Source: a virus. Taken from it: a DNA stretch of 64,000 nucleotides. Location of the stretch: positions 71,013-135,012 of the IMG/VR virus record IMGVR_UViG_3300001765_000256, one strand, 5' to 3'. Shown here piece by piece: positions 18,100 to 50,757 of this stretch. Each line of letters starts with the position of its first letter. Position 1 is the first letter of the stretch. Below the pieces are notes generated by a model. It saw only the letters and a program-made list of their open reading frames with translations, had not been told where the DNA came from and did no database searches. The position numbers and the translations under genes are program-made.

Positions 18100-18142
18100 T
18101 CATAAATCCAAGCTGTAAAAGTATTGAATTCCTCCATATCTT

Positions 18143-18167
18143 CAATAGCTTAGGTTATAAACTTAAT
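18143..18167 (+). promoter_or_regulatory. putative late promoter motif, copy 1
   Basis: CAATAGCTTA-GGTTA-TAAACTTAAT; same 25-nt layout found six times before structural operons. Confidence 0.7.
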
Positions 18168-18220
18168 ATTGGATTGTTATAGTTTATTTAAAATATTTGT
18201 AATAATTACAAAGGATAAAA

Positions 18221-19192
18221 ATGGCACAATTAAACCTTCAAATCAATGCTCTTTCTTTTTTCGACAATACATCATCTAATAATCCGTACCTAAGAGCTTT
18301 CGATTTTACATTAAAGCTTGCTGGATTAGATGCAAAAAATCCAGATCAAAGACCTTACTCTGTAGCACCCCAGTCAACTCAAGTAGTTTATGATGGAACA
18401 AGAACTGTTTCTATAGATGGAACCACAGAGTTTGATATAACTAAGCCTTATTTGGATAAGGATGTTTATCGATTTGCATGGAACAGTACTGGAACAGCTC
18501 CAGCATTCAGATCAGCTAGATCTACGACAATTACAACATCAAGTGAGTTTTCTATTACAACTAACGGACCTATCTCGGTTATGACATCTACATCTGGACC
18601 ATTCAGTACGGCAGCTATACAAGTAGGAGATATTGTAAATATTCTTACTGGTGCAGGACCTTCAAATGCTAATCAGGGTAAATTCACAGTTATAGCAAAG
18701 ACAGCTAGCTCTATATCTTACCAAAACCTTAACTCTGTAGCTGAGACATTCACAGTACTCGACACAAGCCTTTTGTTGGTATACAGCCACGGTGGATCAT
18801 CTAATCAAATTCAAATTGGAGATACGGTAAAAATATCTTCCGGCTTCTCAATTGCTACCTATGGAAACTACGAAGTATCTGAAGTAACTCCAGAGTGGTT
18901 TGAGGTGTTGGTAGGATCTCCATCGGGTATACCACTCGAGACCGATATTGTACCTACAGCTTCAGGTTTGGTATTCTACAAGGAAGCCAAGAAATTTGTT
19001 CTAATTGCAGCTCAACAGTCAGTTTCAGTAAGATTTAATGACGATACTTCTGATAACACTATAGTTGACCCTGTAGAGCCAGGAAACGCAGAAAAGTCAG
19101 GAATCTTATTAAAAAATGGATCTTTCTATAAATTGGTAATCTCAAACACAGGACTTTCTACAGCAAATATTATCATAGCGACAGTAGGTTAA
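18221..19192 (+). CDS. putative virion structural protein (beta-rich)
   Basis: S/T/G-rich 323 aa, first gene after late motif, upstream of portal. Confidence 0.6.
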   Translation: MAQLNLQINALSFFDNTSSNNPYLRAFDFTLKLAGLDAKNPDQRPYSVAPQSTQVVYDGTRTVSIDGTTEFDITKPYLDKDVYRFAWNSTGTAPAFRSARSTTITTSSEFSITTNGPISVMTSTSGPFSTAAIQVGDIVNILTGAGPSNANQGKFTVIAKTASSISYQNLNSVAETFTVLDTSLLLVYSHGGSSNQIQIGDTVKISSGFSIATYGNYEVSEVTPEWFEVLVGSPSGIPLETDIVPTASGLVFYKEAKKFVLIAAQQSVSVRFNDDTSDNTIVDPVEPGNAEKSGILLKNGSFYKLVISNTGLSTANIIIATVG

Positions 19193-19193
19193 T

Positions 19194-21200
19194 ATGTCAA
19201 AGAAAAAAGATTTACAACCAGCACTAAATGATGTTCAGCCTAATGATCCTAGACTTAGTAAAATTACATTTGGATCAATGGATTCTACTCTAACCAGCCA
19301 GGATCCAATTGCTCAAATATTCACAGAATTAAAAAAATCTCAAGATATAAAGGCCATTAAGTTAAGCTTTAGTGATGATCCAATTAGATCTGCTGACTTC
19401 TCTAATATATACAGAAAACGTGCCACTATGATCCCTAACCTCTTACTTAAAAGAGTAAGAGATACAGAAGAGCTTATCGGTGGAGTTATATTACCATTAA
19501 AGGCTAACCAGGTTTCTCTGTTTGGTAGACCAAGACCAAACCGTTTTGATATCGGATTCTCTATAGATATTAAACCTGAAATTTATGAAAAATACAAAGA
19601 TGAAGAAATCGAAAAAATCAAAGCTGAGATTGTACCTAATTTAAGAGAAATCTTATTGAATTGCGGTAAGAATAATGGACTTAGAGACAGAGATAAAACT
19701 ACATTTTCACAATTTCTTAAGCAAATTGTTGAGGATGTTTATACTTTCGGTTGGTGGTCAGCCGAAGTAAGACGTGATTCTTTTAATAATTTCCATAGCT
19801 TTAGAGCTGTAGATGCTGGGACAATATACTATGCCACTCCTGGTAAAGAAAAAACTCAAGAGGCTGAAAATATACGTAAACAAGCAAAGGCTATTTTATC
19901 TAAACTAGAAGGACATAAGATCCCTATTGATAGATTTTCAGAGGGTGATTATACTTGGGTTCAAGCTATTGAAGACCAGCCTTATCAGGTTTTTACAGAT
20001 GATCAGTTGTTAGTATGGAGTCTTAATCCATCTACAGATGTATTACGCGCAGGATATCCTAATACAGTAATCGAGCGTATCATTAACTCCATCACTACTC
20101 ATATCAACTTAACTACACACAATAAGATGTTTTTTCTTAATGGAAGAGCTTCTAAGTCTGTTATGGTATTTAAGTCTAACAACTTAGACGATACAGACAT
20201 TATTGCTATCAGACAACAAATGACTAGCCATATTAATAGTTCTAATGCTGCATGGAGAATGCCTGTATTTGGTATATCACCTACAGATGAAATCGAAGTT
20301 AAACCTTTAGATGGCGGCGGTAGAGATATGGAATTCCAATATCTAGCCGACCTAAATAAGCGAATGATCATGGCCGCATTCCAAGTGAGCCCTGATGAGA
20401 TTGCTGCATTAAGTTATTTAAGCCGTGGTACAAATAGCCAGAGCTTATCTGAATCTAATAATGAGTATAAGTTACTTAAGAGTCAGGAATCAGGCTTTAG
20501 ACCTTTATTGTCTGCCATTGAGGATTTTCTTAATGAGAGATTACTACCTAAGATTAATTTAGACTGGTCTAAGATGATTAGGATTAATCTTGCAGGAGTT
20601 GATGCAGACAGTCCTGAAAAAGAGGCAACATTATTAAGTCAAGCTTCGTCATTATATTATACATTTAATGATATTATGGATAAGGTTGAAAAGAAACGTA
20701 TACCACTTGGTGGCGACTTTCCAATGAATGCAGCCTATATGCAAATAATGGAAAAATATTTCACAATGGGTGAAATACTTGAAACATTCCAGCCAGATAG
20801 ATACAAGAACGCATCTCAGAATCCTGATATGCAGTATTATATCAATAACCCTGCATGGTTCCAATTTAAACAAATGCAAATGCAAGAACAACAAATGAAG
20901 CAACAAGCTCAGATGGCAAACGGGCAGCAGCTTGCTGCCCCAGGTCAGGAACAGCAAGGTCAACCTCAAGATTCTTCACAAGATCAAGATCAAGACCTTG
21001 ACTCAGCAGTAGGCCAACTATCTGAATTAATAAGTAAATCAAGCCTTGCAAAATCGGACGGATCATTATATAACAAAAAAGAACTTGCTAAGAAACATAA
21101 AAAGATGAAAGATAAGATTCTTGGTGATTTCGAGAAGCAGTCTAAGAATATGATTGAGGAGATAGTATTTGCTATAGAAGGCAAAAAGAATAAAGAGTAA
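19194..21200 (+). CDS. portal protein
   Basis: RAVDAGTI, KMFFLNG, DMEFQY..AAFQVSPDEI motifs typical of large-myovirus portals; position after terminase. Confidence 0.85.
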   Translation: MSKKKDLQPALNDVQPNDPRLSKITFGSMDSTLTSQDPIAQIFTELKKSQDIKAIKLSFSDDPIRSADFSNIYRKRATMIPNLLLKRVRDTEELIGGVILPLKANQVSLFGRPRPNRFDIGFSIDIKPEIYEKYKDEEIEKIKAEIVPNLREILLNCGKNNGLRDRDKTTFSQFLKQIVEDVYTFGWWSAEVRRDSFNNFHSFRAVDAGTIYYATPGKEKTQEAENIRKQAKAILSKLEGHKIPIDRFSEGDYTWVQAIEDQPYQVFTDDQLLVWSLNPSTDVLRAGYPNTVIERIINSITTHINLTTHNKMFFLNGRASKSVMVFKSNNLDDTDIIAIRQQMTSHINSSNAAWRMPVFGISPTDEIEVKPLDGGGRDMEFQYLADLNKRMIMAAFQVSPDEIAALSYLSRGTNSQSLSESNNEYKLLKSQESGFRPLLSAIEDFLNERLLPKINLDWSKMIRINLAGVDADSPEKEATLLSQASSLYYTFNDIMDKVEKKRIPLGGDFPMNAAYMQIMEKYFTMGEILETFQPDRYKNASQNPDMQYYINNPAWFQFKQMQMQEQQMKQQAQMANGQQLAAPGQEQQGQPQDSSQDQDQDLDSAVGQLSELISKSSLAKSDGSLYNKKELAKKHKKMKDKILGDFEKQSKNMIEEIVFAIEGKKNKE

Positions 21201-21203
21201 TAC

Positions 21204-23078
21204 ATGTTTACAAAAGCATTTCAAAGAATCATAGAAGAGATTATAGGTAAGACATTCAATAGTCTTAGGTTTAATCTATTAGGCCCAGACAGAGTGGCAA
21301 AAGCTTTTGTATTTAGTATGATGGGTAGCAAGTATAACCCAAACACTACTCTGTCTTCTGTATATCTACATGCTAACGCACAGAACTCAACAGATCCAAG
21401 ATCCATAGATAAAAGTACAATTAATCAACTTCTAGATATATCAGAAGATTATATCGATACGTTAGAAACAAAAAGCAAGTCTGATATTAATAGAATTATC
21501 ACACAACACATGTCAGACATAGAGCAAAAAGCTAAGATGTTAAACATGTCGCCAAGAGATGTACTTCTTAGTGATGAAGGGTCTGATATTGTAAAAACAA
21601 TGAAGGCCGATTTAAAAGACATCAAAGAAAAGATTGACAAATCGGTAGACCTGCTCGCAGATCATCAAAGGTATAATGCTCAGAATTTCGGTGCAATGGA
21701 CGGCATACTAACAGCTGCCAGATCTATAGGTATAGATGACCCTACAGTTATGAAGATAGGCGTTGTGGATGAAAAACTTAGCGAGATGTGTACACACCTA
21801 TGGCATACACCAGGCAATATCAATAAACCTAAAGTATATAGAATGTCGGAGCTTAAAGGTGGCGAAGGTAATCCTAAAAAGGGAATGTGGGAGGCCACAA
21901 TCGGACTTAGCCATATTAACTGTTTTACAGAAGGAAAAACCCCAGTCCTTACTAGTACTGGATGGCAACCGTTGAAAAATATAAAAATGGGAGATCTTGT
22001 ACTTACACATAACGGACATTTTAAAAAGGTTGTAGATCTAATAAATGAACCATATAGGTACAAAAAAACATACAAAATTAATTATACATATAACGGAGAA
22101 GATTATAATATAAGAATTACTCCAGACCATAAGATGCTTACCGATAAAGGGTGGATCGAAGCCCAACATCTTACTAATGACCATAATTTAGTATCACTAG
22201 TTGATCCGTGTATTATTTGCGGATCTCAAACAGAAACAAAAAGTAATCACAAGTTTGGACAGAAGCTTACCTGCTCGTCAGAATGCTATAGCAAGTATAT
22301 GCAAGATAGAGTGACAGGCTACCATAACGACATGTCCGAAATAGATAAAATCAAAAGAGGGTCGAATATATCATCAGCTATACGTGATGGTTTCAGTGAC
22401 GGTACTCGAACTTCCGTATTCTCGAATCCAGAGTATTGGACTCCAGACAGGAGAAAGAAGACGGCAGACTCTATTATATCACGCATGCCTCAAATGTTAA
22501 TATCTTCAGCGTCTACACGCGTATCCAAAGAGCAACGTATCGTGTACGGATGGATACTTAATGAGTTCCCTAAAGAAAACGTAGTCTTAGAGCATAACGT
22601 TGATAGATATGCAATCGATATTGCATTTCCAGATCATAAGATAGGTATAGAGATAGACGGTAAGTATCACGAAAACGAACGGATAATTAAAGATAAGGCA
22701 AGAGACAGTAGGCTGAATGATTTAGGGTGGACAATTATACGATTCGGAAAGAATACAGGCAGAACTGTAAATAAGAATAATATAATTCAGAACATAAAGA
22801 CACTTCTGTACAACCATAATGGTCTATACAGGTTCCAGCTTGCTAAGATAAACTATATAAAGAAGACCGAAACCGGAAAGTATGGCAGGGTATTTTGCAT
22901 TGGAGTAGAGGATGACGCTTCATTCGTTTCTAGAGGTGTTGTAAGTCATAACTGTAGACACGTATTAGTGCCAATCATGCCTGGATTCGGACTTGATGAA
23001 TCTGGTAGTATAATATATAAAGGTAAAGATCCTGAGACAGGAGAGCCTTGGGATGAATATAAAAAACAAAGAGGATAA
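21204..23078 (+). CDS. MuF/gp7-like head morphogenesis protein interrupted by an intein
   Basis: Follows portal; spliced product restores GLSHIN-CRH (HPNCRC-like motif). Confidence 0.75.
   Translation: MFTKAFQRIIEEIIGKTFNSLRFNLLGPDRVAKAFVFSMMGSKYNPNTTLSSVYLHANAQNSTDPRSIDKSTINQLLDISEDYIDTLETKSKSDINRIITQHMSDIEQKAKMLNMSPRDVLLSDEGSDIVKTMKADLKDIKEKIDKSVDLLADHQRYNAQNFGAMDGILTAARSIGIDDPTVMKIGVVDEKLSEMCTHLWHTPGNINKPKVYRMSELKGGEGNPKKGMWEATIGLSHINCFTEGKTPVLTSTGWQPLKNIKMGDLVLTHNGHFKKVVDLINEPYRYKKTYKINYTYNGEDYNIRITPDHKMLTDKGWIEAQHLTNDHNLVSLVDPCIICGSQTETKSNHKFGQKLTCSSECYSKYMQDRVTGYHNDMSEIDKIKRGSNISSAIRDGFSDGTRTSVFSNPEYWTPDRRKKTADSIISRMPQMLISSASTRVSKEQRIVYGWILNEFPKENVVLEHNVDRYAIDIAFPDHKIGIEIDGKYHENERIIKDKARDSRLNDLGWTIIRFGKNTGRTVNKNNIIQNIKTLLYNHNGLYRFQLAKINYIKKTETGKYGRVFCIGVEDDASFVSRGVVSHNCRHVLVPIMPGFGLDESGSIIYKGKDPETGEPWDEYKKQRG
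21921..22952 (+). mobile_element. intein with DUF559/Vsr-like endonuclease (344 aa)
   Basis: Starts CFTEG, block B ITPDHKML, ends VVSHN followed by Cys; internal YAIDIAFPDHKIGIEIDGKYH..DKARDSRLNDLGWTIIRF. Confidence 0.9.
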
Positions 23079-23732: not shown

Positions 23733-23929
23733 TAAGGCAACTCCTTAAGATTAGGTAATGCCAAAAACTCAAGTCTATATTCGTAAAACCCAATAGACAT
23801 CTTATCTGCCATCTCTACAACAGACATAATATCATCTATAGACATAATGCTAGATAGCATATCTACAGCCTCCTGGTCACCAGCAAAAATATAACGCAAT
23901 AAAGATATTTGTGTTTGTGTTAGTTTCAT
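23732..23929 (-). CDS. hypothetical protein
   Basis: Start reassigned to ATG 23929 after GGAGG RBS; minus-strand TTGACT-N17-TAGCTT promoter at 23946-23974. Confidence 0.65.
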   Translation of the reverse strand: MKLTQTQISLLRYIFAGDQEAVDMLSSIMSIDDIMSVVEMADKMSIGFYEYRLEFLALPNLKELP

Positions 23930-24041
23930 GTAGACCTCCATATATAAGCTACCAGGATTATACACATAAGTCAAGTGTAAATATTACAATACAACCGATA
24001 TAAAAATAAGCCCTTAAAATATAATAATACATTATATATAT

Positions 24042-24066
24042 CAATAACTTAAGCCAAAAACTTAAT
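24042..24066 (+). promoter_or_regulatory. putative late promoter motif, copy 2
   Basis: CAATAACTTA-AGCCA-AAAACTTAAT, 9 nt before protease ATG (near-leaderless). Confidence 0.7.
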
Positions 24067-29857: not shown

Positions 29858-32470
29858 ATGACACATAATGAACGAGAAAAGCATATATTTAATCTAATTG
29901 ATGATGGTAATTGGGACTCTGCTATCGAGCATGCTAAGGCTATACCTACACACCATGATATATGGCAGAGGTTGCCGACTGCAACAGAAAGCGGAATGCC
30001 AGATCATGCTATCAATAAAGTTATCGACCACCTAGATGATAATAATATAAATTCAAGCGGTTTTATGTTCGAGCTTACACATAATCTTCAGGGGCATAAT
30101 CAAGCACCTGCATTACAACGTATAGCAAAATATATAAACGATAAGCAAGATGGATCTTATACAGAGATGAATAACGTCCTTAAGCATCCAAATTTTAAAC
30201 ATACAGATGATGACGAAAAACTTAAAGCTCCTGGCGAGTTTTGGAAATCATACGAGAGAAGAGTAGAGCCGCATCATTTTGCCGCCATTAAATCACTATA
30301 CTCTGGTAAACCAGAAAAGATTTCTCATAGAAATAAAGAAGGATCTTCTGATGGATTTTACATAGCAGACAGTTATATTTACGATTTAACTCCAGCAGCA
30401 GCCGTACATTCGTTTGATAAACCTAAAATGTATGGTGGAGCGTATGTGGCTAAGATGGATCATATAATGCCACACTTGAGAGACTATGCATCTAAAATGC
30501 AAGATAAGGTCATGAAAGACGATAATATCCACAAGAGGTATCTTAACGGTAAGGCATACATAAAAGTACATAGAGGTATCGGAGGACAGTACTCTAAAGA
30601 AATTAGAGACGCTGCCGGATACCACCCAGCCACACAGGAATATGACCATAAAAGTCTAACTGTTCCTGTAGCTCCATTTTCATCATGGACTACAGACCCA
30701 GAAATGGCAGACAGGTTTGCTACAGGCAGAGGGCATACATTAGATATGCCAGATCACGGTACTGTTATATCAAAATGGATGCCAGTAAGTGATATATTAC
30801 ATTCAGGCAATCATACCGTAGTACCTGGTCAAACAGGCGTTCATCCTACAGAACAGGAAATCGTGTTTGGCCATCCAACAGGAAAAATGAAAGTACACAC
30901 TAAAGAATTGAAATTTGAAAATAAAATGCAAAACGGCGACGCATTTAAGTCTGGTATTAAACGAGATAAAATGCAAAAAAATATTAAGGATGCAGGACTA
31001 GCTTTAGCAACAGCAACAGCCATGATGGGCGTACCACAACAACTATCAACATCTGACAATGTATTAGATAACGATATGATACAATATCACAAAACACAAG
31101 AGAAACCTACAGTTAAACCTCTTTATGGTTTAAAGTATATAGAGATGATTGAGTCTTCTGGCGGTAAGAACTTAAAGCACCCAGAAGTTAAATCTGGATT
31201 AAACGCCAATACTTCTGCTATAGGTAAGTACGCTATTATGCCATTACAGGCCATAGAGATAGCAAAAAAAGATAAAGCCATAGCTGAAAAATACCCACAA
31301 CTTCTATCTTATGATCATGTTAAAGATCAAGATAAAATTAAAAACAGTATAACATCTAATCCAGAACTAGAGACAGAACTTGCAAACTCACACTGGAAGA
31401 GACTGTATGACAGATTTAACGGAAATGAGTCTAAGATGGCTCATGCATGGTTTAATGGAATTTCTGGGACAACAAAAAAGAAATATGATGAAATAGCTGA
31501 ACATACTTATGTAAAAAAATACCATAAGTATAAAAAACTAATGCAGCTAGAAAGAAAACCAGCCAATCTAAAAAAGAGTGAGCACGATGTACCAGAAGAA
31601 ATTAGATCTATAACTAAGTTTGTTTATAATGGAAGCTCAGACAATAAGAGCTTATCTGAAGTTAAAGAGATAAACGATCTTATACAGATGAGAGCTTTCC
31701 ATGCATTAGAAAACGAAGGTCAGTTTACATCTAGTAGTTTTGTGTTAGGGAACCTACACAGCCAGTCATGGCTTATGAAAGTTGAATCAGGAAGTAGACC
31801 AGCCATTATGTCTGCTAAAACAGGGTTACAGTCTATCAAAGAAGTTGCTTTTTATGATATAGCAGATAGAGTTTTTAATCTTAAAGGTATAGTACCAGAA
31901 GCATTACTCGGAGAAGTAGATATTAAGGGAACATTAACACCAACGGCAGCTATAAAACTTCTACCTAAAGAGTTTAAACTGTCGGTAGATATGGAAAATG
32001 AGATCCCAGGCAATATGTTCAGAGTTTTAGAGAAGTATAGAAAAGCTGGAGTGTTGCATAAAATGGCAGCACTATTATATATCCTAGGTGATGGAGACTC
32101 CCATGGTAAGAATACTATGACAGATGGAGAGACATTAAGATTAATCGACCATGGAAGTTCGTTTGCCGATGAGAAATTTGACCCATCTACAGACAATAAT
32201 ATATTTATACCATATATACTTAGGGTTGGACGAATTAAAGATCATATGGAAAAAGAAGAAAAGCTAGAAAATATGCCAAAAATTGACAGTTTAGATGTAA
32301 AAAAAGACGTAAAAGCATGGCTTTTGTCTATAAATTCCGACATGTTAGAGGATAAACTTAATAATTACGACATTGATCCTTCTGCTGTTATGGGTAGATT
32401 GAAAAAATTACAATCTTTAGTTGTAAACACAGAAGAGATAGATAATACTATTAATGGAGTATGGTTATAA
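29858..32470 (+). CDS. polyvalent protein: ADP-ribosyltransferase-like + lysozyme/transglycosylase-like + kinase-like
   Basis: KVHRG..FSSWTT..EQE (R-S-E ART triad); IESSGG..AIGKYAIMP..AHAWFNG; KEVAFY..GDGDSHGKN..LIDHGSSF. Confidence 0.7.
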   Translation: MTHNEREKHIFNLIDDGNWDSAIEHAKAIPTHHDIWQRLPTATESGMPDHAINKVIDHLDDNNINSSGFMFELTHNLQGHNQAPALQRIAKYINDKQDGSYTEMNNVLKHPNFKHTDDDEKLKAPGEFWKSYERRVEPHHFAAIKSLYSGKPEKISHRNKEGSSDGFYIADSYIYDLTPAAAVHSFDKPKMYGGAYVAKMDHIMPHLRDYASKMQDKVMKDDNIHKRYLNGKAYIKVHRGIGGQYSKEIRDAAGYHPATQEYDHKSLTVPVAPFSSWTTDPEMADRFATGRGHTLDMPDHGTVISKWMPVSDILHSGNHTVVPGQTGVHPTEQEIVFGHPTGKMKVHTKELKFENKMQNGDAFKSGIKRDKMQKNIKDAGLALATATAMMGVPQQLSTSDNVLDNDMIQYHKTQEKPTVKPLYGLKYIEMIESSGGKNLKHPEVKSGLNANTSAIGKYAIMPLQAIEIAKKDKAIAEKYPQLLSYDHVKDQDKIKNSITSNPELETELANSHWKRLYDRFNGNESKMAHAWFNGISGTTKKKYDEIAEHTYVKKYHKYKKLMQLERKPANLKKSEHDVPEEIRSITKFVYNGSSDNKSLSEVKEINDLIQMRAFHALENEGQFTSSSFVLGNLHSQSWLMKVESGSRPAIMSAKTGLQSIKEVAFYDIADRVFNLKGIVPEALLGEVDIKGTLTPTAAIKLLPKEFKLSVDMENEIPGNMFRVLEKYRKAGVLHKMAALLYILGDGDSHGKNTMTDGETLRLIDHGSSFADEKFDPSTDNNIFIPYILRVGRIKDHMEKEEKLENMPKIDSLDVKKDVKAWLLSINSDMLEDKLNNYDIDPSAVMGRLKKLQSLVVNTEEIDNTINGVWL

Positions 32471-33916: not shown

Positions 33917-33945
33917 TTGACATTAGGTTATAAGTAGTGTATATT
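33917..33945 (+). promoter_or_regulatory. sigma70-type promoter of endonuclease gene
   Basis: TTGACA-N17-TATATT. Confidence 0.7.
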
Positions 33946-33982: not shown

Positions 33983-35560
33983 ATGCCAAAAGTCGGCCAA
34001 TTCTACCCTATTTCTAAACTTATAGAATCATTGCCTGATTTCATTACTATAGATAATGATACCTATAAGGGATTGTATAAAAAAGCAAGATTTATTGATT
34101 CTGAGTACGGTGAATACTGGACATACCCAAAATATATACTTAAAGGTAGATGTCATATTAAAAGGTCCAAAAGGGAAGCAGCATCCAAAATAAGACTACC
34201 TATTGAAACTATTAAAGCTAAACTTCCATCTCATATTACTATTGATGAGTCTACATACACAAATTCACGCACAAAAGCACGTTTCACAGACTCAGAATAT
34301 GGCGAATTTTGGGCAGTTCCATACAATGTAATGAGGGGATCAGGACACCCTCAAATAAAGAAGAATAATATGTCAAAAAACATCACCTTATCTGTATCAG
34401 AGGTGAAATCTAGGCTACCGGACAATATTATTATAGACGAATCGACTTATACTAAAGCAAGCGCAAAAGCTAGATTCATAGACTCAGAATATGGTGAATG
34501 GTGGAATACACCAAATAATATTTTTAATGGCCATCGTCACCCTAAAAAAGCAACAGATTCTAGTATTATACCGTTAAATAAAATCAAAGAAAGATTACCA
34601 GAACATTTAGATATAGATTCTTCTACATATATAAATACTACGGAGAAGTGTAAGTTCATAGACTCAGAGTATGGTGAATTTTGGGCAAGACCAACACATG
34701 TTTTACATCAAAATATGAACCACAGGTCACGATTTAGATTCAGATCTAAATCAGAGGATGAAGTGAGAGTTTATATATCTAGTATAGTTAATGTTAATAT
34801 TACTACTAATCAGACATTTTATGATATAATAAGTACACGTTGTGAGATCGATATATATATACCAGACAAAAAAATAGGCGTGGAGTATCACGGACTATAT
34901 TGGCATTCAGATAAACACAAACACAAATTATACCATCGAGATAAGTTAGTATCTACATCTAAGATGGATATCACCCTCCTACAGATATACTCAGACGAAT
35001 GGGAATTCAAACAGGACATAGTTAAATCGATAATTAAAGCCAAACTTGGTATTTCAGACCAGAAATATTATGCTCGTAAATTAACTATTAAAGATGTAAA
35101 CAATAATGAAGCTCAATCTTTCCTTAAAGACAGTCACTTAATGGGTGAGTATAAGTCAGCGAAGCATATCGGTCTGTATGATAAAGATATACTAATCTCA
35201 ATGATTTCTTACAAAAAGCATAAAGATGGTATTGATATATCCAGATTCTGCAATAAACTCAATACCTCTGTAGCCGGAGGCTTAAGCCGTCTTTTAAAAG
35301 AAATCGAAAAACGTGAGCAGCCTAAGTTTATCCAATCATGGGTTGATCTTAGATACGGCACTGGCGATAGCCTAAAGGCCATCGGATTTACTCATAAACG
35401 TACCACTTTAGGATGGAAGTGGACTGATGGGATTAATACTTATAATAGACTTAAATGTAGAGCTAATATGGATGGTCGTAACTTAACAGAAAAACAACAC
35501 GCTGATGAATTAGGCTGGTATCGAATCTACGACGCTGGACAGGCTTTATTTATCAGATAA
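33983..35560 (+). CDS. free-standing homing-type endonuclease (four DSEYGExW repeats + PD-(D/E)XK-like domain + GNAT-like C-terminus)
   Basis: 4x RFxDSEYGExWxxP; EIDIYIPDKKIGVEYHGLYWHS; SRFC..GGLSRL..SWVDLRYG..RIYDAG. Confidence 0.75.
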   Translation: MPKVGQFYPISKLIESLPDFITIDNDTYKGLYKKARFIDSEYGEYWTYPKYILKGRCHIKRSKREAASKIRLPIETIKAKLPSHITIDESTYTNSRTKARFTDSEYGEFWAVPYNVMRGSGHPQIKKNNMSKNITLSVSEVKSRLPDNIIIDESTYTKASAKARFIDSEYGEWWNTPNNIFNGHRHPKKATDSSIIPLNKIKERLPEHLDIDSSTYINTTEKCKFIDSEYGEFWARPTHVLHQNMNHRSRFRFRSKSEDEVRVYISSIVNVNITTNQTFYDIISTRCEIDIYIPDKKIGVEYHGLYWHSDKHKHKLYHRDKLVSTSKMDITLLQIYSDEWEFKQDIVKSIIKAKLGISDQKYYARKLTIKDVNNNEAQSFLKDSHLMGEYKSAKHIGLYDKDILISMISYKKHKDGIDISRFCNKLNTSVAGGLSRLLKEIEKREQPKFIQSWVDLRYGTGDSLKAIGFTHKRTTLGWKWTDGINTYNRLKCRANMDGRNLTEKQHADELGWYRIYDAGQALFIR

Positions 35561-35572
35561 TCATATTAAAAT

Positions 35573-35597
35573 CAACAACTTAAGTCAAAAACTTAAT
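35573..35597 (+). promoter_or_regulatory. putative late promoter motif, copy 3
   Basis: CAACAACTTA-AGTCA-AAAACTTAAT. Confidence 0.7.
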
Positions 35598-42075: not shown

Positions 42076-43032
42076 ATGATTAAAGCGACAGATCTTTACT
42101 TTGCACAAATTATTAAGTTGATGATTCAGGATTTAAGAAAGAATAGATTCCTTATTAATGATATATTATCTGATGTAACATCAGACCCTATCCTTAAAGA
42201 ACTATACGGACAAAAAGAAGTAGAGAAGTTTAACCTACTTGTAGATAAAGATATTCAGATAAACGTAGAGCATGCTATTGATGTATCAAAGTTTCCTGCT
42301 ATTGCCATCCGTGTTGGTGGTGGATCAGAAGAAACAGGACGTACAGGTGATGCACTAGGAGACGGATTTTACTCAGAATCTGTTAAGTCTAACACTTTAG
42401 GTGGTGTATTTAAAACTCCACGTATCATGCTTGGACCTATAACTCCAGAATCTTTCGATTATATAACTGGTAAAATGGTGTTCACAGATAATGTATCACT
42501 AGCTTCAGTTTTTGATGGAATGTTAGTATACGACGAATTAAACAAAAAAGAATACCCTATAATTACTGTTATGGACAACAGCACTTTATTTATTGAGCCA
42601 GGCTTAAGACCCAATCTTACAAATATGACTATTAGGTCTGCTACACAGACGGCAATACATACTAGACGTAATTATTTTACATCTGAGCAAGTTACACTTA
42701 TATGTGCAGCTGTAGATCCAGTAGAGGTTATATACTTGTATCAGATATTAATGTATCAAATAGGTAGACATAGAGTTCCACTACTTGAAGGTAAAAACTT
42801 CAAGAACGGTACGCTATCGTATACACCTATATACAAGCTAGCAGAAGACCCTAACTTTATATATGCAAGAGACATAACGCTCAATGGTATGGTTGAACAT
42901 AGCTATATAGAGAACACACAGCGGCCTATAGACGGGCTTGCACATGATCTTAGAATTAACAATGAGAAGACTCCTGATGCTATAGTTCCAATCGTAAGCA
43001 ATCAAGGTTGGTCGTCTGAAAATGACGAATAA
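42076..43032 (+). CDS. putative tail completion/terminator protein
   Basis: FPAIAI..G.SE..LGD motif; position before sheath. Confidence 0.5.
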   Translation: MIKATDLYFAQIIKLMIQDLRKNRFLINDILSDVTSDPILKELYGQKEVEKFNLLVDKDIQINVEHAIDVSKFPAIAIRVGGGSEETGRTGDALGDGFYSESVKSNTLGGVFKTPRIMLGPITPESFDYITGKMVFTDNVSLASVFDGMLVYDELNKKEYPIITVMDNSTLFIEPGLRPNLTNMTIRSATQTAIHTRRNYFTSEQVTLICAAVDPVEVIYLYQILMYQIGRHRVPLLEGKNFKNGTLSYTPIYKLAEDPNFIYARDITLNGMVEHSYIENTQRPIDGLAHDLRINNEKTPDAIVPIVSNQGWSSENDE

Positions 43033-43044
43033 CTATACAGATTT

Positions 43045-43069
43045 CAATATGTTACAGTAAAAACCTAAT
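43045..43069 (+). promoter_or_regulatory. putative late promoter motif, copy 4
   Basis: CAATATGTTA-CAGTA-AAAACCTAAT. Confidence 0.65.
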
Positions 43070-43515: not shown

Positions 43516-45033
43516 ATGGATAAGTTAAAAAAGGGTAATGACGTATTAGCTGACGAGGTAACTTCTGAAAAAGGGGTTAGCGACGTTGGTATAGATATTA
43601 GACGTGCCGATAAACGTAATCCTGGTGTAGTTTCGCACGGATACGGAAGAGTTTCTACTCCAGACGCACATAAAGAAAAAGCAAAAAGCCACCTTAAAAG
43701 TTTAGTTCATGCGATTAAGACGCAGCCTAAACCTAATCTTACTAGATCTGAAGATCTTCAGAAGGATTACTGGAGCGATAAGATTAAAGCAGCTAACCAA
43801 CAAAAGCATGCTGAGAAGCAAGCTAAACTTGAGACTCACTTTAAAGCTAAAGGTCAAAAAGTACCAGAGCATCTATCTAACCCAAAAGAACAGGTTATAG
43901 ATTACAAACAGGTAAGATCTGAGATGCAGAAACCTAAAGCTCCTGTTGCCGCTCCGACTAATAAACCTACACCTGTACTTGAAGTAAAACCTAATCTGCC
44001 TCGTAATCAAAAGGTTTTTAATCCAGATCTTAGCGGTAAGGTCGGCTATAAGCCAACGAAACTAGCAGCATCAGAGAAGGCTAAAATTCAACCTGCATCA
44101 ATAACTGAACCTTTAACTATTAACTCCAGAGAAACAATTACTAGTCCTCATATGATTAACGGACCTGTAAAACTTAACCCATACGGTGACAATATGAAAA
44201 AAGCTAGCGAAGTGTTAAATAAGATGATCGGATGTCTTAAGAAGGTAGATCCTAAGACTAAACTTCCAGGTATTATGATAGATAAATCCGAAAAACCCAA
44301 AAAAGCTCAGGATTTTGAGGTTGGGGTTCATAAGCAAACAACTACTGACGATAAAGCTAAAGGTACATCTCAAGCTGGTTATTTAGTTAGAGAAGGTAAT
44401 AAGAATAAGGATTTTCAGTCAGTATTCGAGAGCGTAGCTAAACCTCACCATAAAATGAACCTAAAGAACCTAAAAAATATGTCTAAGCCTAACCTTACTA
44501 GATCTGAGGATGTTCAAAAGAACATGAATATCATGAATCAGGCACCTGTAGCTAAGGCCTCATCTGCACCAGCTCTAGCACCTGCACTTCCTAAGCCAGC
44601 TGCTCCAAAGATGCAGCAAACAAAGATGCCTAAATCTAAAGCTCCTGCAATTAAACAACCTCCAGCATTACAAATGAACGAACAAAAACCTTTAGATGCA
44701 AAAACTAAACTAGTTAACCACCTAAAATCACTTAAAAGCGTACCTGTAATCAAGTCGGAGGAGACCCCTGGAAAAAAGTACGTAACGGTTAGTCAGCATT
44801 GGACTAGCCGTAAACACAATAAAGAATCAGGAAAAGCAGAAAATCCAGTATGGGATGCAGGTAAAAAGAAACTTACACATACAGATGACCTAGATAAATT
44901 AAAAAGCAATGGTCATATAAGTGGCTGGGATGAACATAATGAGCCCAAGAAAATGCATGGATACGAAACTTACGAAAAACACCCAGACGGTAAGTTGACT
45001 TTTGTACATGCTAAGTACGATACGTCTGGATAG
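43516..45033 (+). CDS. K/P-rich low-complexity putative inner-head protein
   Basis: Internal repeat KPNLTRSEDxQK twice; KLAASE, IDKSE, VIKSEE. Confidence 0.6.
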   Translation: MDKLKKGNDVLADEVTSEKGVSDVGIDIRRADKRNPGVVSHGYGRVSTPDAHKEKAKSHLKSLVHAIKTQPKPNLTRSEDLQKDYWSDKIKAANQQKHAEKQAKLETHFKAKGQKVPEHLSNPKEQVIDYKQVRSEMQKPKAPVAAPTNKPTPVLEVKPNLPRNQKVFNPDLSGKVGYKPTKLAASEKAKIQPASITEPLTINSRETITSPHMINGPVKLNPYGDNMKKASEVLNKMIGCLKKVDPKTKLPGIMIDKSEKPKKAQDFEVGVHKQTTTDDKAKGTSQAGYLVREGNKNKDFQSVFESVAKPHHKMNLKNLKNMSKPNLTRSEDVQKNMNIMNQAPVAKASSAPALAPALPKPAAPKMQQTKMPKSKAPAIKQPPALQMNEQKPLDAKTKLVNHLKSLKSVPVIKSEETPGKKYVTVSQHWTSRKHNKESGKAENPVWDAGKKKLTHTDDLDKLKSNGHISGWDEHNEPKKMHGYETYEKHPDGKLTFVHAKYDTSG

Positions 45034-45042
45034 AAGGTAAAA

Positions 45043-45279
45043 ATGGCTAGAAAGAATTATACTTCCAATGAGGTTCAACAACAAGAGGAGACTGTGCAAA
45101 ACACAAAACCTTTAGTTAGCTGGAGATCGTTCGATTCTTTCTGGAATGAGTGCGTAAAGAATGGCACACCTGGAATTAAGAGCGCATGTAAGGCTCACTT
45201 TCAGACATTAGGTGTAATGGATAATCAGGCAGAGTGGGTAAAAGCTGCCGAACATTTCGGAATACCTATAGAGAAGTAG
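45043..45279 (+). CDS. hypothetical protein
   Basis: 78-aa ORF with AAGG RBS. Confidence 0.6.
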   Translation: MARKNYTSNEVQQQEETVQNTKPLVSWRSFDSFWNECVKNGTPGIKSACKAHFQTLGVMDNQAEWVKAAEHFGIPIEK

Positions 45280-45298
45280 TACTAAATTGTAATAAAAA

Positions 45299-45323
45299 CA
45301 GTATGTTATGCTGTAAACTTAAT
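45299..45323 (+). promoter_or_regulatory. putative late promoter motif, copy 5
   Basis: CAGTATGTTA-TGCTG-TAAACTTAAT upstream of sheath. Confidence 0.65.
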
Positions 45324-45364: not shown

Positions 45365-48169
45365 ATGGCTCGTTCATATACTACCTCAGAAGGCATCGTC
45401 CTTGTGATTCCAGATTCTAGTGTAAGTGTTAATGTTATTAGTCAACCTGCTGGACTAGCTACTACTGGTGTAATAGCTTTAGTTGGTGAAGCTGATGAAG
45501 GCAAACATTGGTCTGAAGAGGCAAAACTGTCTGATAACAGCTTTGGCCCTGGAGACGTTGCTAGAGTCCAAGCTAAATACGGTTCTGGCCGATTACTTGA
45601 CGCTTTCAAAGGTCTAATCGGAGCTTCCCTATCTCCAAGAATTCAAGGTTCTTTTAATAGAGCAATCTTGGTTAAGTCTAACTTAAGCACAAAAGCTGCT
45701 AAAGAGACTGAAGATAGCCACGGTGTATTTTTCTCTAAACTTGCTGGTAAAAAAGGCAATAATATTAAAGAATCAATCTCTACATCTACTGCTGAAGCTG
45801 CACCTACAACTGCAAGCTTTTCTTATATTCCATCTGCTTCTGCTGCTTCTTTAGCTTTACGAGTTAACGGTGGATCTAAACAAACTCTAGCTATTTCTGC
45901 TAATACAACACCTGCCGCTTTAGCAACATCTTTAGTTGGCTTAAACAATATTAATGCAGTCGGTGGAGTAGATAAGCTTATCGTTGCTGGACTTGCAGCT
46001 ACAAATATTCAATTGGATGTAGTTTCAGGACAAAACGTTAATATAAAATTAGCTTCTCCTGCTGTATGGGCTTCTGCTCCTTCAGTTGGCGATACATTAA
46101 GAATTCCAGCTTCATCTGTAATCGAAGGTGGATCTGCTGAAAACGTTGGATGGTATTTAGTTACTGCTGTATCTAACTCAGCTTCTTTAGCTCAAATTAC
46201 AGCTACTAAGATCACAGCTGGAGCACCTGCTACAGTTGCAGCAATCGCTCTTAGTGTTGCACCAGGTAGCGATCTAGTTGATTATAGTGCACTTAAAATC
46301 GACAATATGTCTGGAATGAACAGAGATGTTCTTGCTAGCTTAGTTGCCGAAACAGCTACAGTTACTGTTGCTGGATCTTCACTAACTTTCACACTTGATG
46401 GTTCAAACGTATTTGATGCAGACTCTAAAATTGGAGATTTAGTTTATATTTCTTCTGCTTCTGCATTTAAAGGTGCTGGTAATGCTAACGTAGGTTGGTA
46501 TCAAGTAATCGCAGCAAGCAACTTTGCTTCATCTGCATTTGTTACTATGTCTAGACTTTCTAACGGAACTCCTGTTTCTGTAGCTTCTGCTGCAATTGCA
46601 GCTGCTGCCGATCTTCAAGTTCTTGCTCAGCAAATCGATGGTTCTGGTAAGTCTTTAGAGATTTACGATAATGCCGGAGCTGCTAATATCAGTACACTAA
46701 TGAAGCAATTAGGTGCTGATTCTGCCGCTGCATGGTTGGAATCACTCATTCTTTCTTCTGCTGAACTTAAGAAGAAAATTGAGATTTCTAAACCAAACCC
46801 ATTAGTAACTGAGTCTTTCACTCACGGTGGAAGCGTTTCTTTACTTTTAGGATATAAAGGTACTACTGCTACAGCCACTATTCAGACTATTTCTGGAATC
46901 AAAAAACTTCAGACTTCAGTTACTGGTGGAATCGGTGCAAATCTGGATATCGTTCTTAAAGATTCTAACTCAATGTCAGACCTAATTGATCTTCTAAATT
47001 TACAACCTGGATACTCTGCTTCTGCTGCTTCAGCTCAAGAAGCTCAAAGAAATCCAAGTGATGTACTTGATGAAGTTACAGCTATCGGTATATGTTCTGA
47101 TTTGTCTAGCAAACCTGGACGTATCAAACGTGACATATGGGATATGACTGCTGGATTTAATAATATCGCTAATAGCTCTACTTTAATCAATTATTCTGTA
47201 ATTAAAAAAGCAGGATTACCTGAAGATGAAGGACCTATGTTCTTATCTGGTGGAGATAAAGGTGGATCTACAGGTCTTGCAGTTAGCCAAGCTGTTGATG
47301 CATTAGCTAATATCCGATGTAATTTCGTAGTACCATTGTTTTCTCAAGATGCTGACCTTGATAAGGTAGATAACTCTACTGAGTCTGGATCCACCTACAC
47401 TATCGATGCAGTAAATGCTGCTGTAAGAACTCATTGTGTTAATATGTCTACAGCTAAAACTAAGAGACATAGAATCGGATTAGTATCTAAAAAAGGTACT
47501 TTTGATGAAGCACGAGCTTCTGCACAAACAATGGCTTCTTTCCGAGTAGCTCATTTATTCCAAGATGTAAAAGATCTTGATAGTAACGGTAACATTAAGC
47601 AATTCCAACCTTGGATGGCTTCTGTTAAAGCTGCTGGAATGCAAGCTGCTGGATTCTATAAGTCTATTTTCAATAAAGCAATCAATATATCTGGAGTAGT
47701 TAACTCTGCTGATTTCAATGATGAGTCTAACTCACAAGCTGAAGATGCTTTACTTGCAGGACTTATTCCAATTCAACGTCAAGAAGATGGATCATATACA
47801 TTCTTGTCAGATCAGTTGACATATGGATTGGATAATAACTTCGTATATAATAACTTACAAAGTGTATATGCAAGCGACATCTTAGCACTTTCTCTAGCCG
47901 ATTCTTTAAAGAAAGCTTTTGTTGGAGAATCAGTAGCTGACGTTACTGCTCCGGTTGCTGTTAGTTTTATACAAGGAAAAATGGCTGAATTCCAAAACTC
48001 AAAGTTAATAGTTGGAAGTAAGGATTTCCCATCTGGATATAAAAAGATAGAAGTATCTATTGACCAAGGCGTAATGGCTGTAAGGTGTGTTATAATACTT
48101 AGTACCTCCCTTTATTTTATACCTATAACATTGGATATTGAAGGGTTACGCGACTCAGCTTCTGCTTAA
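45365..48169 (+). CDS. contractile tail sheath protein
   Basis: IALVGEADEG, YGSGRLLDA, LSGGDKG, HCVNMS..R; 934 aa followed by tube. Confidence 0.9.
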   Translation: MARSYTTSEGIVLVIPDSSVSVNVISQPAGLATTGVIALVGEADEGKHWSEEAKLSDNSFGPGDVARVQAKYGSGRLLDAFKGLIGASLSPRIQGSFNRAILVKSNLSTKAAKETEDSHGVFFSKLAGKKGNNIKESISTSTAEAAPTTASFSYIPSASAASLALRVNGGSKQTLAISANTTPAALATSLVGLNNINAVGGVDKLIVAGLAATNIQLDVVSGQNVNIKLASPAVWASAPSVGDTLRIPASSVIEGGSAENVGWYLVTAVSNSASLAQITATKITAGAPATVAAIALSVAPGSDLVDYSALKIDNMSGMNRDVLASLVAETATVTVAGSSLTFTLDGSNVFDADSKIGDLVYISSASAFKGAGNANVGWYQVIAASNFASSAFVTMSRLSNGTPVSVASAAIAAAADLQVLAQQIDGSGKSLEIYDNAGAANISTLMKQLGADSAAAWLESLILSSAELKKKIEISKPNPLVTESFTHGGSVSLLLGYKGTTATATIQTISGIKKLQTSVTGGIGANLDIVLKDSNSMSDLIDLLNLQPGYSASAASAQEAQRNPSDVLDEVTAIGICSDLSSKPGRIKRDIWDMTAGFNNIANSSTLINYSVIKKAGLPEDEGPMFLSGGDKGGSTGLAVSQAVDALANIRCNFVVPLFSQDADLDKVDNSTESGSTYTIDAVNAAVRTHCVNMSTAKTKRHRIGLVSKKGTFDEARASAQTMASFRVAHLFQDVKDLDSNGNIKQFQPWMASVKAAGMQAAGFYKSIFNKAINISGVVNSADFNDESNSQAEDALLAGLIPIQRQEDGSYTFLSDQLTYGLDNNFVYNNLQSVYASDILALSLADSLKKAFVGESVADVTAPVAVSFIQGKMAEFQNSKLIVGSKDFPSGYKKIEVSIDQGVMAVRCVIILSTSLYFIPITLDIEGLRDSASA

Positions 48170-48227: not shown

Positions 48228-48246
48228 TGATATATAGGAGATTTAC

Positions 48247-48714: not shown

Positions 48715-48740
48715 TAGTTACTTAAAATTCAAATTTTATA

Positions 48741-49565: not shown

Positions 49566-49589
49566 CAGTATTCTCCATACTACTTAGTA
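49349..49589. repeat. 27-bp exact direct repeat at gene junctions
   Basis: CATCAGTATTCTCCATACTACTTAGTA at 49349-49375 and 49563-49589; on minus strand contains RBS and start codon. Confidence 0.85.
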
Positions 49590-49773: not shown

Positions 49774-49945
49774 TTATATCCTTAACTAACTGCTCTATCA
49801 GATTATTAAAAGTTATCTTAAAGTTTACATCATTATATATACGATGAAGTATACTGTAGTGAATATCTACCCCAACAATTAGATGCCTCATAGACATCAT
49901 ACGATCAGAGGCATTACGCATAGACGTATATATTTTCATATCCAT
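49748..49945 (-). CDS. hypothetical protein
   Basis: 65-aa coupled ORF. Confidence 0.5.
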   Translation of the reverse strand: MDMKIYTSMRNASDRMMSMRHLIVGVDIHYSILHRIYNDVNFKITFNNLIEQLVKDINEKNRKDT

Positions 49946-50136
49946 TAGTTAACATTCCCATCAGATTCAATACGCTCAATCTGAGCCTCAAGTATTTGGA
50001 TCTTTCTATTAAGAATGCGCATTTTTGATTGAGTTTCTACCAATATTCGACCATATTCTGCCATTTCGATGGTATAATCCATATGTTTACCAGATAATTG
50101 ATCTAAAAGATCCTCTTTTTTTCTACTTTTCTTCAT
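49945..50136 (-). CDS. hypothetical coiled-coil protein
   Basis: 63-aa coupled ORF. Confidence 0.55.
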   Translation of the reverse strand: MKKSRKKEDLLDQLSGKHMDYTIEMAEYGRILVETQSKMRILNRKIQILEAQIERIESDGNVN

Positions 50137-50341
50137 TGGACACCCCAGCAGAATAGCTATTTAGCTTGTTATACATAGTCTTAAGGCTTACACCTAGAAT
50201 TTTAGCAGCAGCACTCTTATTTCCATTTACATACAAAAGTACCTGTTTAATGTACTCCTCTTCAATTTTAGCCAGTGTTGGTAATTTTTGCGCATTGTCT
50301 ACTTGTGTAGATTTTTCATCTACGGTATTATTTACATTCAT
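50123..50341 (-). CDS. stand-alone Fis/NtrC-type HTH DNA-binding protein
   Basis: LPTLAKIEEEYIKQVL..NGNKSAAAKILGVSLKTMYNKL. Confidence 0.9.
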   Translation of the reverse strand: MNVNNTVDEKSTQVDNAQKLPTLAKIEEEYIKQVLLYVNGNKSAAAKILGVSLKTMYNKLNSYSAGVSNEEK

Positions 50342-50350
50342 ATATTATCC

Positions 50351-50638
50351 TTATTTATTAAACTTATCTACAGATGCAACCATAGAAACAGTAGAATCTG
50401 TACTGCTTTTTTTAATATCAAAACCGAACTGCTCAAGTTCCTTGCCTACAATATCCAATAAGATACTCTTATCCTTATCAAAAGTAAAAGTAATAGTGTA
50501 ATCCTCCATCTTATCTATAGTGTCAAAGATATATGTACGCATCTTGGTTAACATGGCTAACCCTTCAGTAGCTCTAGCGTCTTTGGCCCTCTTTTTTCTA
50601 TCTTTAATCATATCGAACACCTCTTTAGCCTTTTTCAT
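50351..50638 (-). CDS. hypothetical protein
   Basis: Start reassigned to ATG 50638 after GGAGGTG RBS; minus-strand TTGTAT-N17-TAATAT promoter upstream. Confidence 0.65.
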   Translation of the reverse strand: MKKAKEVFDMIKDRKKRAKDARATEGLAMLTKMRTYIFDTIDKMEDYTITFTFDKDKSILLDIVGKELEQFGFDIKKSSTDSTVSMVASVDKFNK

Positions 50639-50732
50639 AATCACCTCCAATAAATACATATTACATTATTAATATAAAAAATACAAGTCTTTTGTAAAAT
50701 AAACAATCCGTACTAGAAAATACCAATAAAAA

Positions 50733-50757
50733 CAATAAGTTGTAATAAAAACTTAAT
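50733..50757 (+). promoter_or_regulatory. putative late promoter motif, copy 6
   Basis: CAATAAGTTG-TAATA-AAAACTTAAT upstream of capsid operon. Confidence 0.7.

Follow-up and report, generated by a model that had tools for sequence, protein, structure and literature searches.

The window analysed here, a stretch of 64,000 nucleotides, covers positions 71013-135012 of one virus record of 135,012 bp (IMGVR_UViG_3300001765_000256, called G000 in comparisons) and carries a recurrent 25-bp motif ahead of the structural genes of an uncultivated phage. The motif is probably the late promoter of this phage and of its close relatives, recognized by a holoenzyme that contains a phage-encoded sigma factor. 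Its downstream half, a(A)AA(A/T)CTTAAT, would be read by host core RNA polymerase together with the phage sigma (12876-13865), and its upstream half would take the place of the -35 contact, which the sigma would be unable to make, as it stops short of the region 4.2 helix-turn-helix. The best single candidate for the reader of the upstream half is a host DNA-bending protein of the integration host factor (IHF) type, although the balance of probability is against it. We infer the promoter role, the register, the start site, the late timing and the identity of every binder from sequence.

Copies of the motif and their placement

By pattern search, CAANNNNTTRNNNNNWAAACYTAAT is found exactly on the + strand of the window at 18143, 24042, 35573, 43045 and 50733, with one-mismatch copies at 45299 (CAG for CAA) and 32338; a two-mismatch match at 23770 appears to be due to chance. 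The window thus yields eight matches with two mismatches or fewer, all on the + strand, whereas 100 dinucleotide-preserving shuffles of it averaged 1.26 such matches and never exceeded 4. The initial annotation had described six sites with a fixed spacing, which are confirmed as five exact copies and one with a single mismatch (45299). The copy at 32338 is added, such that there are seven genuine copies in the window and 11 across the 135-kb genome, four of which are found beyond the window ahead of genes for baseplate and tail. Over the whole record, TTR-N5-WAAACYTAAT occurs 11 times on the + strand and not once on the - strand. A position weight matrix built from the 11 sites scores them at 25.5-33.4 bits, as compared to 15.8 bits for the next best genomic site and maxima of 7.9-16.0 bits in five shuffled genomes.

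Placement follows the genes. Ten of the 11 sites are in non-coding DNA, which makes up the 4.2% of the genome outside open reading frame (ORF) calls, and these ten lie 9-68 nt before the + strand start codon of structural genes, with separate Shine-Dalgarno sequences between motif and start codon. All 11 are on the strand of the genes that they precede, and the same bias is seen in relatives. The initial annotation had allowed that the motif might prove equally frequent within genes or on the opposite strand; genome-wide, the division is 11 to 0 by strand and ten to one in favor of non-coding DNA. Its description of each site as intergenic holds for the six sites that it listed, but not for the added copy at 32338, which is within the last 130 nt of an 870-amino-acid (aa) ORF, with the next start 108 nt further on.

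The first copy (18123-18167, +, 30.0 bits) consists of the 25-bp motif at 18143-18167 plus a conserved, A/T-rich upstream extension of about 20 bp, and is found 53 nt before a 323-aa gene that precedes the portal gene; a sigma-70-type promoter, TTGACA-17-TATAGT (18071-18099), is directly upstream. The second (24022-24066, +, 31.3 bits), a perfect match to the IHF consensus WATCAANNNNTTR, is 9 nt before the ATG of a 308-aa gene that is protease-like by a weak match (PHROG 1028, E 9e-8). The third (32318-32362, +, 27.1 bits), with its one mismatch, is the copy in the 3' end of the 870-aa ORF, and the next gene begins at 32471. The fourth (35553-35597, +, 29.2 bits), also perfect for WATCAANNNNTTR, is 45 nt before a 140-aa gene at 35643, and the fifth (43025-43069, +, 28.3 bits), with the core AAACCTAAT, is 32 nt before a 137-aa gene at 43102. 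The sixth (45279-45323, +, 30.1 bits) is 41 nt before the gene for a 934-aa tail sheath (45365-48169), labeled by 40% identity to the annotated tail sheath of phage Mx1. The seventh (50713-50757, +, 29.0 bits) is 68 nt before an operon of a 157-aa gene, a 285-aa gene and the gene for the major capsid (52209-53591; PHROG 752, E 1e-43). Of the labels that had been attached to these operons, portal and major capsid stand by PHROG matches, sheath by identity to Mx1 and protease by the weak match, but the label of head for the operon at 35573 was not confirmed.

The layout of the genome, with blocks assigned by PHROG and Pfam scans, gives these positions their context. Genome coordinates 1-42 kb hold + strand baseplate and tail-fibre genes. 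The interval 42-80.6 kb is a - strand block for replication and early functions (DNA polymerase, primase, helicase, recombinase, a GroEL-like protein, ClpP and deformylase), and none of the 11 motif sites is found there. The interval 80.9-127.7 kb, on the + strand, encodes a helicase, the sigma-like protein, SbcD and the large terminase, and then the portal, the protease-like protein, the sheath and the major capsid. No phage RNA polymerase was recognized in these scans of the record.

Canonical promoters of the TTGACA-17-TATAAT type are found ahead of early genes and of the sigma operon, so the late motif would constitute a separate promoter class. The 5,028 bp of intergenic DNA contain 13 matches, one of them perfect, to TTGACA-16/18-TATAAT at 10 or more of 12 positions. 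A consensus match of the host sigma-70 type, TTGACT-17-TATATT with a TG (9893-9921, +), heads the block for the helicase, sigma, SbcD and TerL, and presumably serves as an early or middle promoter from which the sigma gene is expressed. Given that host-type promoters head both the early genes and the sigma operon, the canonical promoters would be read by the host polymerase, which presumably argues against a host among the Bacteroidota.

Conservation of the motif among related viruses

Relatives were retrieved via the capsid protein and a sigma profile. Seven related virus records (G001-G007) carry the motif with the same bias to one strand. Exact copies in G001 number ten forward and none in reverse; forward and reverse counts are 2 and 0 in G004, 6 and 0 in G005, 0 and 15 in G006, 2 and 0 in G007, and 0 and 5 in G002, with 0-1 matches in backward-read controls, and G003 has two copies. 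In an eighth record, the fragment L007 of 8 kb, the motif is found once exactly and once with the core shortened. In G006, which is estimated to be complete, a search with only the core gives 13 intergenic matches on the same strand, all with the upstream half, and 11 matches on the opposite strand, none with it; thus the two halves belong together. The spacer from TTR to core is 5 nt in eight pattern hits in G000 and 15 in G006, with other spacers at the level of noise, and the C is fixed 7 nt before TTR. The fourth position of the core is A in G000, G001 and G004, T in G002, G006 and G007, and any base in G005.

To describe the columns, sites were aligned with the C of CAA numbered 0, as 19 sites of subclade A (G000, G001 and G004) and 29 of subclade B, after four coding rows without the upstream pattern were dropped. 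Conservation extends about 16-20 bp upstream of the 25-bp motif, such that the whole signal spans about 40-45 bp. Columns -15 to -13 are A or T only. An A at -8 (18/19 in subclade A, 25/29 in subclade B) is followed by R at -7, T at -6, AA at -5 and -4 and T at -1, and then by the C at 0 (19/19 and 26/29), A and R. TTA occupies +7 to +9, and the core +14 to +24.

The phage sigma factor and the core element

The gene at 12876-13865 (+) encodes a 329-aa protein with region 2, a probable region 3 and a helix like that of region 4.1. Its segment DLIQIANEALISSVDKY aligns with region 2.2 of RpoD, and residues 127-319 align with residues 371-560 of E. coli RpoD. A phmmer search of the PDB matches RpoD (6wmr_Z, E 6e-5), and the protein matches PHROG 351, sigma factor, with E 3.7e-9. 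Its structural model, with a predicted local distance difference test (pLDDT) score of 70, is matched by Foldseek to the sigma chains of holoenzyme structures (E about 4e-6; 145 hits at E 0.001 or lower), although linker residues 255-298 are of low confidence, with pLDDT below 50. Region 3 is spanned by the alignment to RpoD, and one homologue has a precomputed hit to PF04539. By alignment, then, region 2 and probably region 3 place the protein in the sigma-70 family, and it ends after region 4.1.

Region 4.2 is missing. The protein ends about 10 residues past the last residue aligned to RpoD, at position 560 of 613, and it has no Pfam hits; matches to PF04545 and PF08281 are above cut-off nowhere in the record, the sigma gene included. 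A search for homologues at E 1e-3 or lower gives 19 proteins, the query included, with full-length members of 326-343 aa and one of 266 aa that covers 78% of the query. All 17 aligned members of the family end at LKLKG(V/L)NF or within 14 residues beyond it. Given that homologues end at the same place, the truncation is a trait of the family rather than the result of a broken gene. The initial annotation was thus correct that region 4 of the phage sigma is truncated: the region 4.2 helix-turn-helix is absent, and is absent across the family. The ORF that follows the sigma gene was considered as a region 4 fragment that acts in trans and was rejected, as it is GroES-like by eye.

A more distant relative, G008, helps to define the core element. 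Its sigma is 29% identical over the full length, with the same length and architecture (aligned residues 2-325). The top intergenic word in G008 is (C/A)AATCTTT(A/T/C), with 14 copies on the + strand and none on the - strand as compared to a shuffle mean of 2.5, and it matches AAATCTTAAT at eight of ten positions. The (C/A)AATCTTT sites of G008 have no conserved upstream columns, and eight of nine intergenic copies are followed by a start codon after 4-12 nt, in four cases after exactly 4 nt. Since G008 keeps the core alone and close to start codons, the core can be linked to this family of sigma factors and its register assigned. The downstream half is therefore supported as an element that travels with this family of sigma factors, and the additional 30 bp or so upstream suggest a clade-specific add-on to the core.

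If the start codons of G008 are real, its messages would be leaderless or nearly so, with transcription beginning about 7 nt after ...CTT. It follows that AA(A/T)CTT would serve as the -10-like hexamer and would place an A at -11 and a T at -7. In most cases at the G008 loci L094-L098 there is no room for a Shine-Dalgarno sequence between core and start codon, and the arrangement suggests that many late messages of G008 are leaderless. An alternative register with CTTAAT as the hexamer is less likely, as it would place four of the start codons of G008 upstream of the start site. The hexamer is thus probably AA(A/T)CTT, not the whole of AAACTTAAT. It had been proposed that the sigma reads AAACTTAAT: the association of the downstream half with the sigma family is borne out by G008, but the hexamer is probably the shorter one. 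With that revision, the proposal of a late promoter class is supported, as a promoter-like class specific to the structural (late) gene blocks by position, strand and conservation.

The predicted promoter can be laid out from this register. In the downstream half, AA(A/T)CTT would act as the -10-like hexamer, with the AA upstream of it in the position of an extended -10 and AAT as the discriminator. The register of G008 would place the start site of the window phage about 4 nt after TAAT, and the upstream half at about -48 to -15. This upstream half would read as a W-tract, N4, A-R-T-A-A-W-W-T-C-A-R, N4, TTA and N5.

The position of the core in G008, 4-12 nt before ATG, is that of a ribosome-binding site, and raises the alternative that the motif is not a promoter but an operator, an antitermination or RNA-processing signal, or a translation signal ahead of the late operons. 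By eye, the 25-bp motif (18143-18167 and other copies) is also a loose inverted repeat, ATCAA-N4-TTA, 3 bp, yAA-N4-TTAAT, which would count toward this alternative. However, in G000 the distance to the start codon varies over its 9-68 nt range, with the Shine-Dalgarno sequences in between; the 11 sites show no conserved hairpin (mean z -0.09) and no Rfam match. Without the motif, the structural blocks would lack recognizable promoters, even though the phage encodes a dedicated sigma. The strict strand bias and the asymmetric conservation fit a promoter as well, and a role other than that of a promoter is very improbable.

Several points do weigh against the late promoter as proposed. The register depends on crude calls of start codons in G008. 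Region 2.3 of the sigma lacks, by eye, the aromatic melting residues of sigma-70 in E. coli, so its -10 chemistry may differ. Phage Mx1, the sole cultured relative, has a sigma 27% identical to that of the window phage but no copy of the motif, and its late promoter was not found. Sequencing runs that contain this DNA yield assembled contigs of flat depth, probably from DNA even where labeled RNA-Seq, and hold no information on start sites. Finally, G000 is estimated to be 82% complete, and thus a gene for a further factor or a polymerase may be missing from the record.

Mx1 and the search for a host

Mx1 is the only named relative by protein matches, with 54% identity for the capsid in addition to the values given above for the sheath and sigma, and its gene order of helicase, sigma, phosphoesterase, TerL and portal is that of G000. 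No nucleotide match to G000 was found in the phage collection. Mx1 has no architecture of an IHF-like half plus core. A de novo k-mer search of Mx1 failed to recover a late motif; it returned words that resemble tRNA, and early promoters of the sigma-70 type whose spacer contains GCGGATCT. The early-type promoters (OR576727.2, loci L081-L089) have the form TTGAC-N(3-5)-(A/G)GCGGATCT-N(5-8)-TAGTAT, and the conserved spacer word GCGGATCT is found in 19 intergenic regions. A further record, G012 (30% GC), is too AT-rich for a k-mer motif search.

In the search for a host, a scan of genome contigs with the sigma profile matched just one 7.7-kb contig of a metagenome-assembled genome, and homologues of the alliinase-like and TnpB-like genes gave no indication of host. 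The available text of a preprint on myxobacterial viruses holds nothing on this clade. In the available main texts, supplements aside, on the Mx1 genome, on phage sigma factors that lack region 4 and on IHF with phage-sigma late promoters, there is no description of the motif or of the promoters of this sigma family.

Candidate readers of the upstream half

On the reading placed first, which we hold to be doubtful even so, the upstream half would be a canonical 34-bp site for host IHF, immediately adjacent to the core read by sigma, with a U-turn centered near -32 in place of the anchor of region 4 at -35. IHF-type bending would then be built into the core promoter, and perhaps, though we would not expect it on balance, DNA architecture rather than a second sequence-reading domain makes a sigma without region 4.2 competent for its promoter. 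As described in the available text of PMC1874591, the canonical 34-bp IHF site has WATCAA starting near its center and TTR 4 bp 3' of WATCAA; it also has two base steps, commonly AA, 9 bp apart, for proline intercalation, and an A-tract in its 5' half. The available text of PMC5829579 reports that a T-to-A change in TTR lowers the affinity of IHF by 100-250-fold.

For the comparison with IHF sites, 51 sites of the clade were used (11 from G000, 14 core-anchored sites from G006 and 26 from other records, with the same four rows dropped). In register, WATCAANNNNTTR shows a mean of 1.5 mismatches in nine positions over the 51 sites, with 11 perfect, 26 at one or fewer and 40 at two or fewer. Random windows average 5.9 mismatches, with one or fewer expected at 0.12%, and every other forward offset gives at least 2.8. 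The mismatch counts that the initial annotation gave for its six sites, none in two and 1-2 in the rest, are correct upon recounting. TTR lies 4 bp 3' of the WATCAA position, as TTA with one TTG, in all 11 G000 sites, which were found via core plus TTR; at G006 sites anchored on the core alone, TTA is at the TTR position in 13 of 13 intergenic, same-strand cases. The consensus includes apparent counterparts, correctly spaced, of all four elements in the available text of PMC1874591, as WWTCAR, TTA, A-R and a W-tract. The kink steps would correspond to A at -8 (45/51), or A-R in 38/51, which precedes the A-R of CAR by 9 bp; the A-tract would correspond to the W-only columns, with a W-run of at least four in 45/51. 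The near-invariant C and TT include the TTR position that is critical for affinity in the available text of PMC5829579.

Other features also suit a host reader. A 34-bp site with WATCAA near its center would stop 1 bp before the core. The upstream half is almost unchanged while the sigma factors have diverged to 31-36% identity, which fits a conserved reader supplied by the host, and a phage homologue of HU or IHF (PF00216) does not rise above cut-off in G000, G001, G002, G005, G006 or Mx1. One lead to an HU-like protein, the G006 orthologue of 15555-16184 (PF00216, E 0.11), was examined via 471 relatives, a profile search of the PDB, PHROGs and its fold, and was rejected: it folds most like small terminases and lies directly before TerL.

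However, resemblance to IHF sites comes cheaply, given that the consensus is AT-rich and that the reverse complement of the core already scores 1.9 mismatches, short of only the C, a likeness explained by the loose inverted repeat within the 25-bp motif. A pure A-run of at least four is found in just 16 of 51 sites. Mismatches to WATCAANNNNTTR over the 11 G000 sites number 0 (2 sites), 1 (3), 2 (2) and 3 (4). Subclade B conforms better at the WATCAA core, with A at +1 in 23/29 and R at +2 in 26/29; the clade consensus is WWTCAR. Subclade A drops the AA of WATCAA in its 19 sites (A, G or C at +1, with A in 11/19; A, C or G at +2, with A in 10/19), and has CGCTA in 7/19. It also has a near-invariant T at +3 (17/19) and A at +4 (18/19) inside the N4 that IHF leaves unconstrained. 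The better-conserved pair at 9 bp in subclade A is T-6 A-5 with T+3 A+4, and we read this pair as off the geometry of IHF by the 6-bp distance from kink to TTR in the available text of PMC5829579.

G008 and Mx1, with sigma factors of the same family, lack the upstream half. A literature search for a comparable pairing of IHF site and phage sigma gave nothing relevant, and positive action of IHF from a site centered at about -32 is not known to have a precedent. The upstream half matches the definition of an IHF site at the level of consensus only.

The difference in fine pattern between subclades, C..TA..TTA in A and CAR....TTA in B, is what would be expected of a reader and site that co-evolve, and bears on a second possibility, which is somewhat unlikely: a phage-encoded activator on the upstream half that bridges to the truncated sigma or to the beta flap, in the manner of MotA of T4. 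The half is present in G000-G007 and absent from G008 and Mx1, and small genes of unassigned function are common to G000 and the complete G006 but were not found in Mx1 (examples are 15188-15574, 1219-1737 on the - strand and 1764-2531 on the - strand). The rigid 5-nt spacing, furthermore, suggests protein-protein contact with the holoenzyme. Pfam and PHROGs nevertheless offer no candidate with a DNA-binding domain, and the upstream half is nearly constant while phage proteins fall to 30-40% identity.

It is unlikely, in turn, that the holoenzyme itself reads the upstream half through the basic N-terminal 110 or so residues of sigma, through the C-terminal domains of alpha as at an UP element, or through both. 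Conservation over about 40 continuous bp at fixed spacing does resemble a single long interface. The N-terminal helical region of sigma, ahead of region 2, is conserved, with pLDDT of 77-95 over residues 21-140, and the A/T-only columns and AATAAAAT-like runs are found where alpha subunits could bind. Yet the sigma of G008 has the same length and architecture while its promoters lack the upstream half, and alpha domains would leave the invariant C and TTA unexplained. The structural model aligns as a whole to sigma-70 chains (about 300-430 columns), with no DNA-binding fold identified N-terminally. The host IHF-type protein thus stays the best single candidate, at the tentative strength given above.

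Comparison with known systems

The closest parallel is with phage phiEco32. In the available text of PMC8948821, its sigma gp36 has no homology to region 4 and works from promoters of a single element, initiating 6-8 bp further downstream. The gp36-dependent middle/late promoters (tAATGTAtA) and those described here share a phage sigma lacking region 4 that acts on the host core, with a conserved A/T-rich, -10-type element before late genes. The (C/A)AATCTTT promoters of G008 look like single-element promoters of this kind. The window phage and its six close relatives differ in that a further 30 bp or so of conserved sequence always lie upstream of the core at a set distance, a feature absent from G008. 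Compared by description, the sigma of the window phage also differs from gp36 in its group-1-like layout, with regions 1.2-4.1.

Late promoters of T4 (TATAAATA) are used by gp55 with gp33 and the sliding clamp; no upstream sequence is needed, and the DNA-loaded clamp activates. As in T4, the sigma-family protein of the window phage is without -35 recognition and the promoter is defined by a -10-type element, but in the window phage the upstream half is conserved and sequence-specific, and the sigma is larger (329 aa), with a probable region 3 and a region 4.1. The middle promoters of T4 use a MotA box at -30 and a host sigma-70 remodeled by AsiA, and so depend on two phage proteins. There, too, an element near -30 replaces the -35 hexamer, with a reader other than sigma region 4.2; unlike T4, however, the window phage has no recognized MotA-like or AsiA-like gene, and its element is much longer.

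IHF-assisted promoters generally have the IHF site well upstream of the polymerase. The site predicted here would instead fill -48 to -15. Set against a canonical IHF site of the lambda H' type, every element in the available text of PMC1874591 has an apparent counterpart in the consensus for the upstream half, but subclade A departs from the IHF consensus at CAA and constrains the N4.

Late promoters of phage 7-11, as given in the available text of PMC8948821, have the bipartite form GTAAtg-N16-aCTA and are used by gp47, a phage sigma, on the host core. The window phage likewise appears to have a bipartite late promoter for a phage sigma on the host core. In 7-11, however, region 4 of the sigma reads the upstream element at normal -35 spacing, whereas the sigma of the window phage has no region 4.2, and the upstream block forms a continuous stretch that lies closer. 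By analogy, the predicted late switch resembles that of phiEco32 and that of T4, where the host core is reprogrammed by a phage sigma that lacks -35 recognition, and differs by its long, rigidly spaced, sequence-specific upstream module.

Other features of the window

Two large genes for HNH or homing endonucleases, at 33983-35560 and 53698-55155 (+), are found between late operons. Both have their own sigma-70-type matches rather than the late motif (TTGACA-17-TATATT at 33917 and TTGACT-17-TATAAT at 53663), and both are without a counterpart in G006, G008, G012 and Mx1. After the portal gene, a 624-aa ORF at 21204-23078 (+) has matches to Hint/intein-splicing and DUF559 endonuclease domains, which suggests an intein plus homing endonuclease inside a conserved structural gene.

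At 9744-9885 and 9632-9679, about ten iteron-like units of (G/A)TCAT(T/C)(A/G)AG(T/C)GT, preceded by three CT-rich CTCT..CTCTAAC repeats, form an array directly upstream of the promoter at 9893-9921. The array is a candidate operator or origin. In a close strain, a contig from run X2 skips 221 bases at 44294-44516 and has five other letters instead, within a 505-aa ORF at 43516-45033.

The phage encodes a GroEL-like chaperonin at 7572-9449 (-; PHROG 5725, E 1e-87) and a 94-aa protein, GroES-like by eye, at 13874-14158 (+). A peptide deformylase, a ClpP-like protease and a thioredoxin are phage-encoded as well (genome positions 53871-54323, 55765-56619 and 51741-52106, -). At the end of the record, a four-gene run at 61119-63929 (+) begins with an 89-aa protein with a PHB_acc_N DNA-binding domain (E 4e-19), and also includes a 506-aa TnpB/Cas12f-like protein (OrfB_IS605 plus a Cas12f1-like TNB domain), a 267-aa Cas1-like protein (PF01867, E 1e-25) and an 80-aa ORF. 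The nearest relatives of the 506-aa protein are at most 59% identical. The run may be a phage-borne module for clustered regularly interspaced short palindromic repeat (CRISPR) adaptation or an RNA-guided nuclease.

Implications

Phage sigma factors that lack region 4 are already documented at single-element promoters of the -10 type, which they use either unaided or with activators that do not recognize a sequence, so the upstream half is the unusual part of the proposed promoter. At least eight related records (G000-G007) have the upstream element and a distant relative is without it, which provides a natural comparison for the ways in which -35 recognition may be replaced. Recognition by IHF would amount to a new route by which core promoters recruit a nucleoid protein, whereas a phage-encoded reader would represent a new family of activators. 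In either case, the motif gives a precise map of operons for a poorly annotated clade of phages related to Myxococcus phage Mx1.

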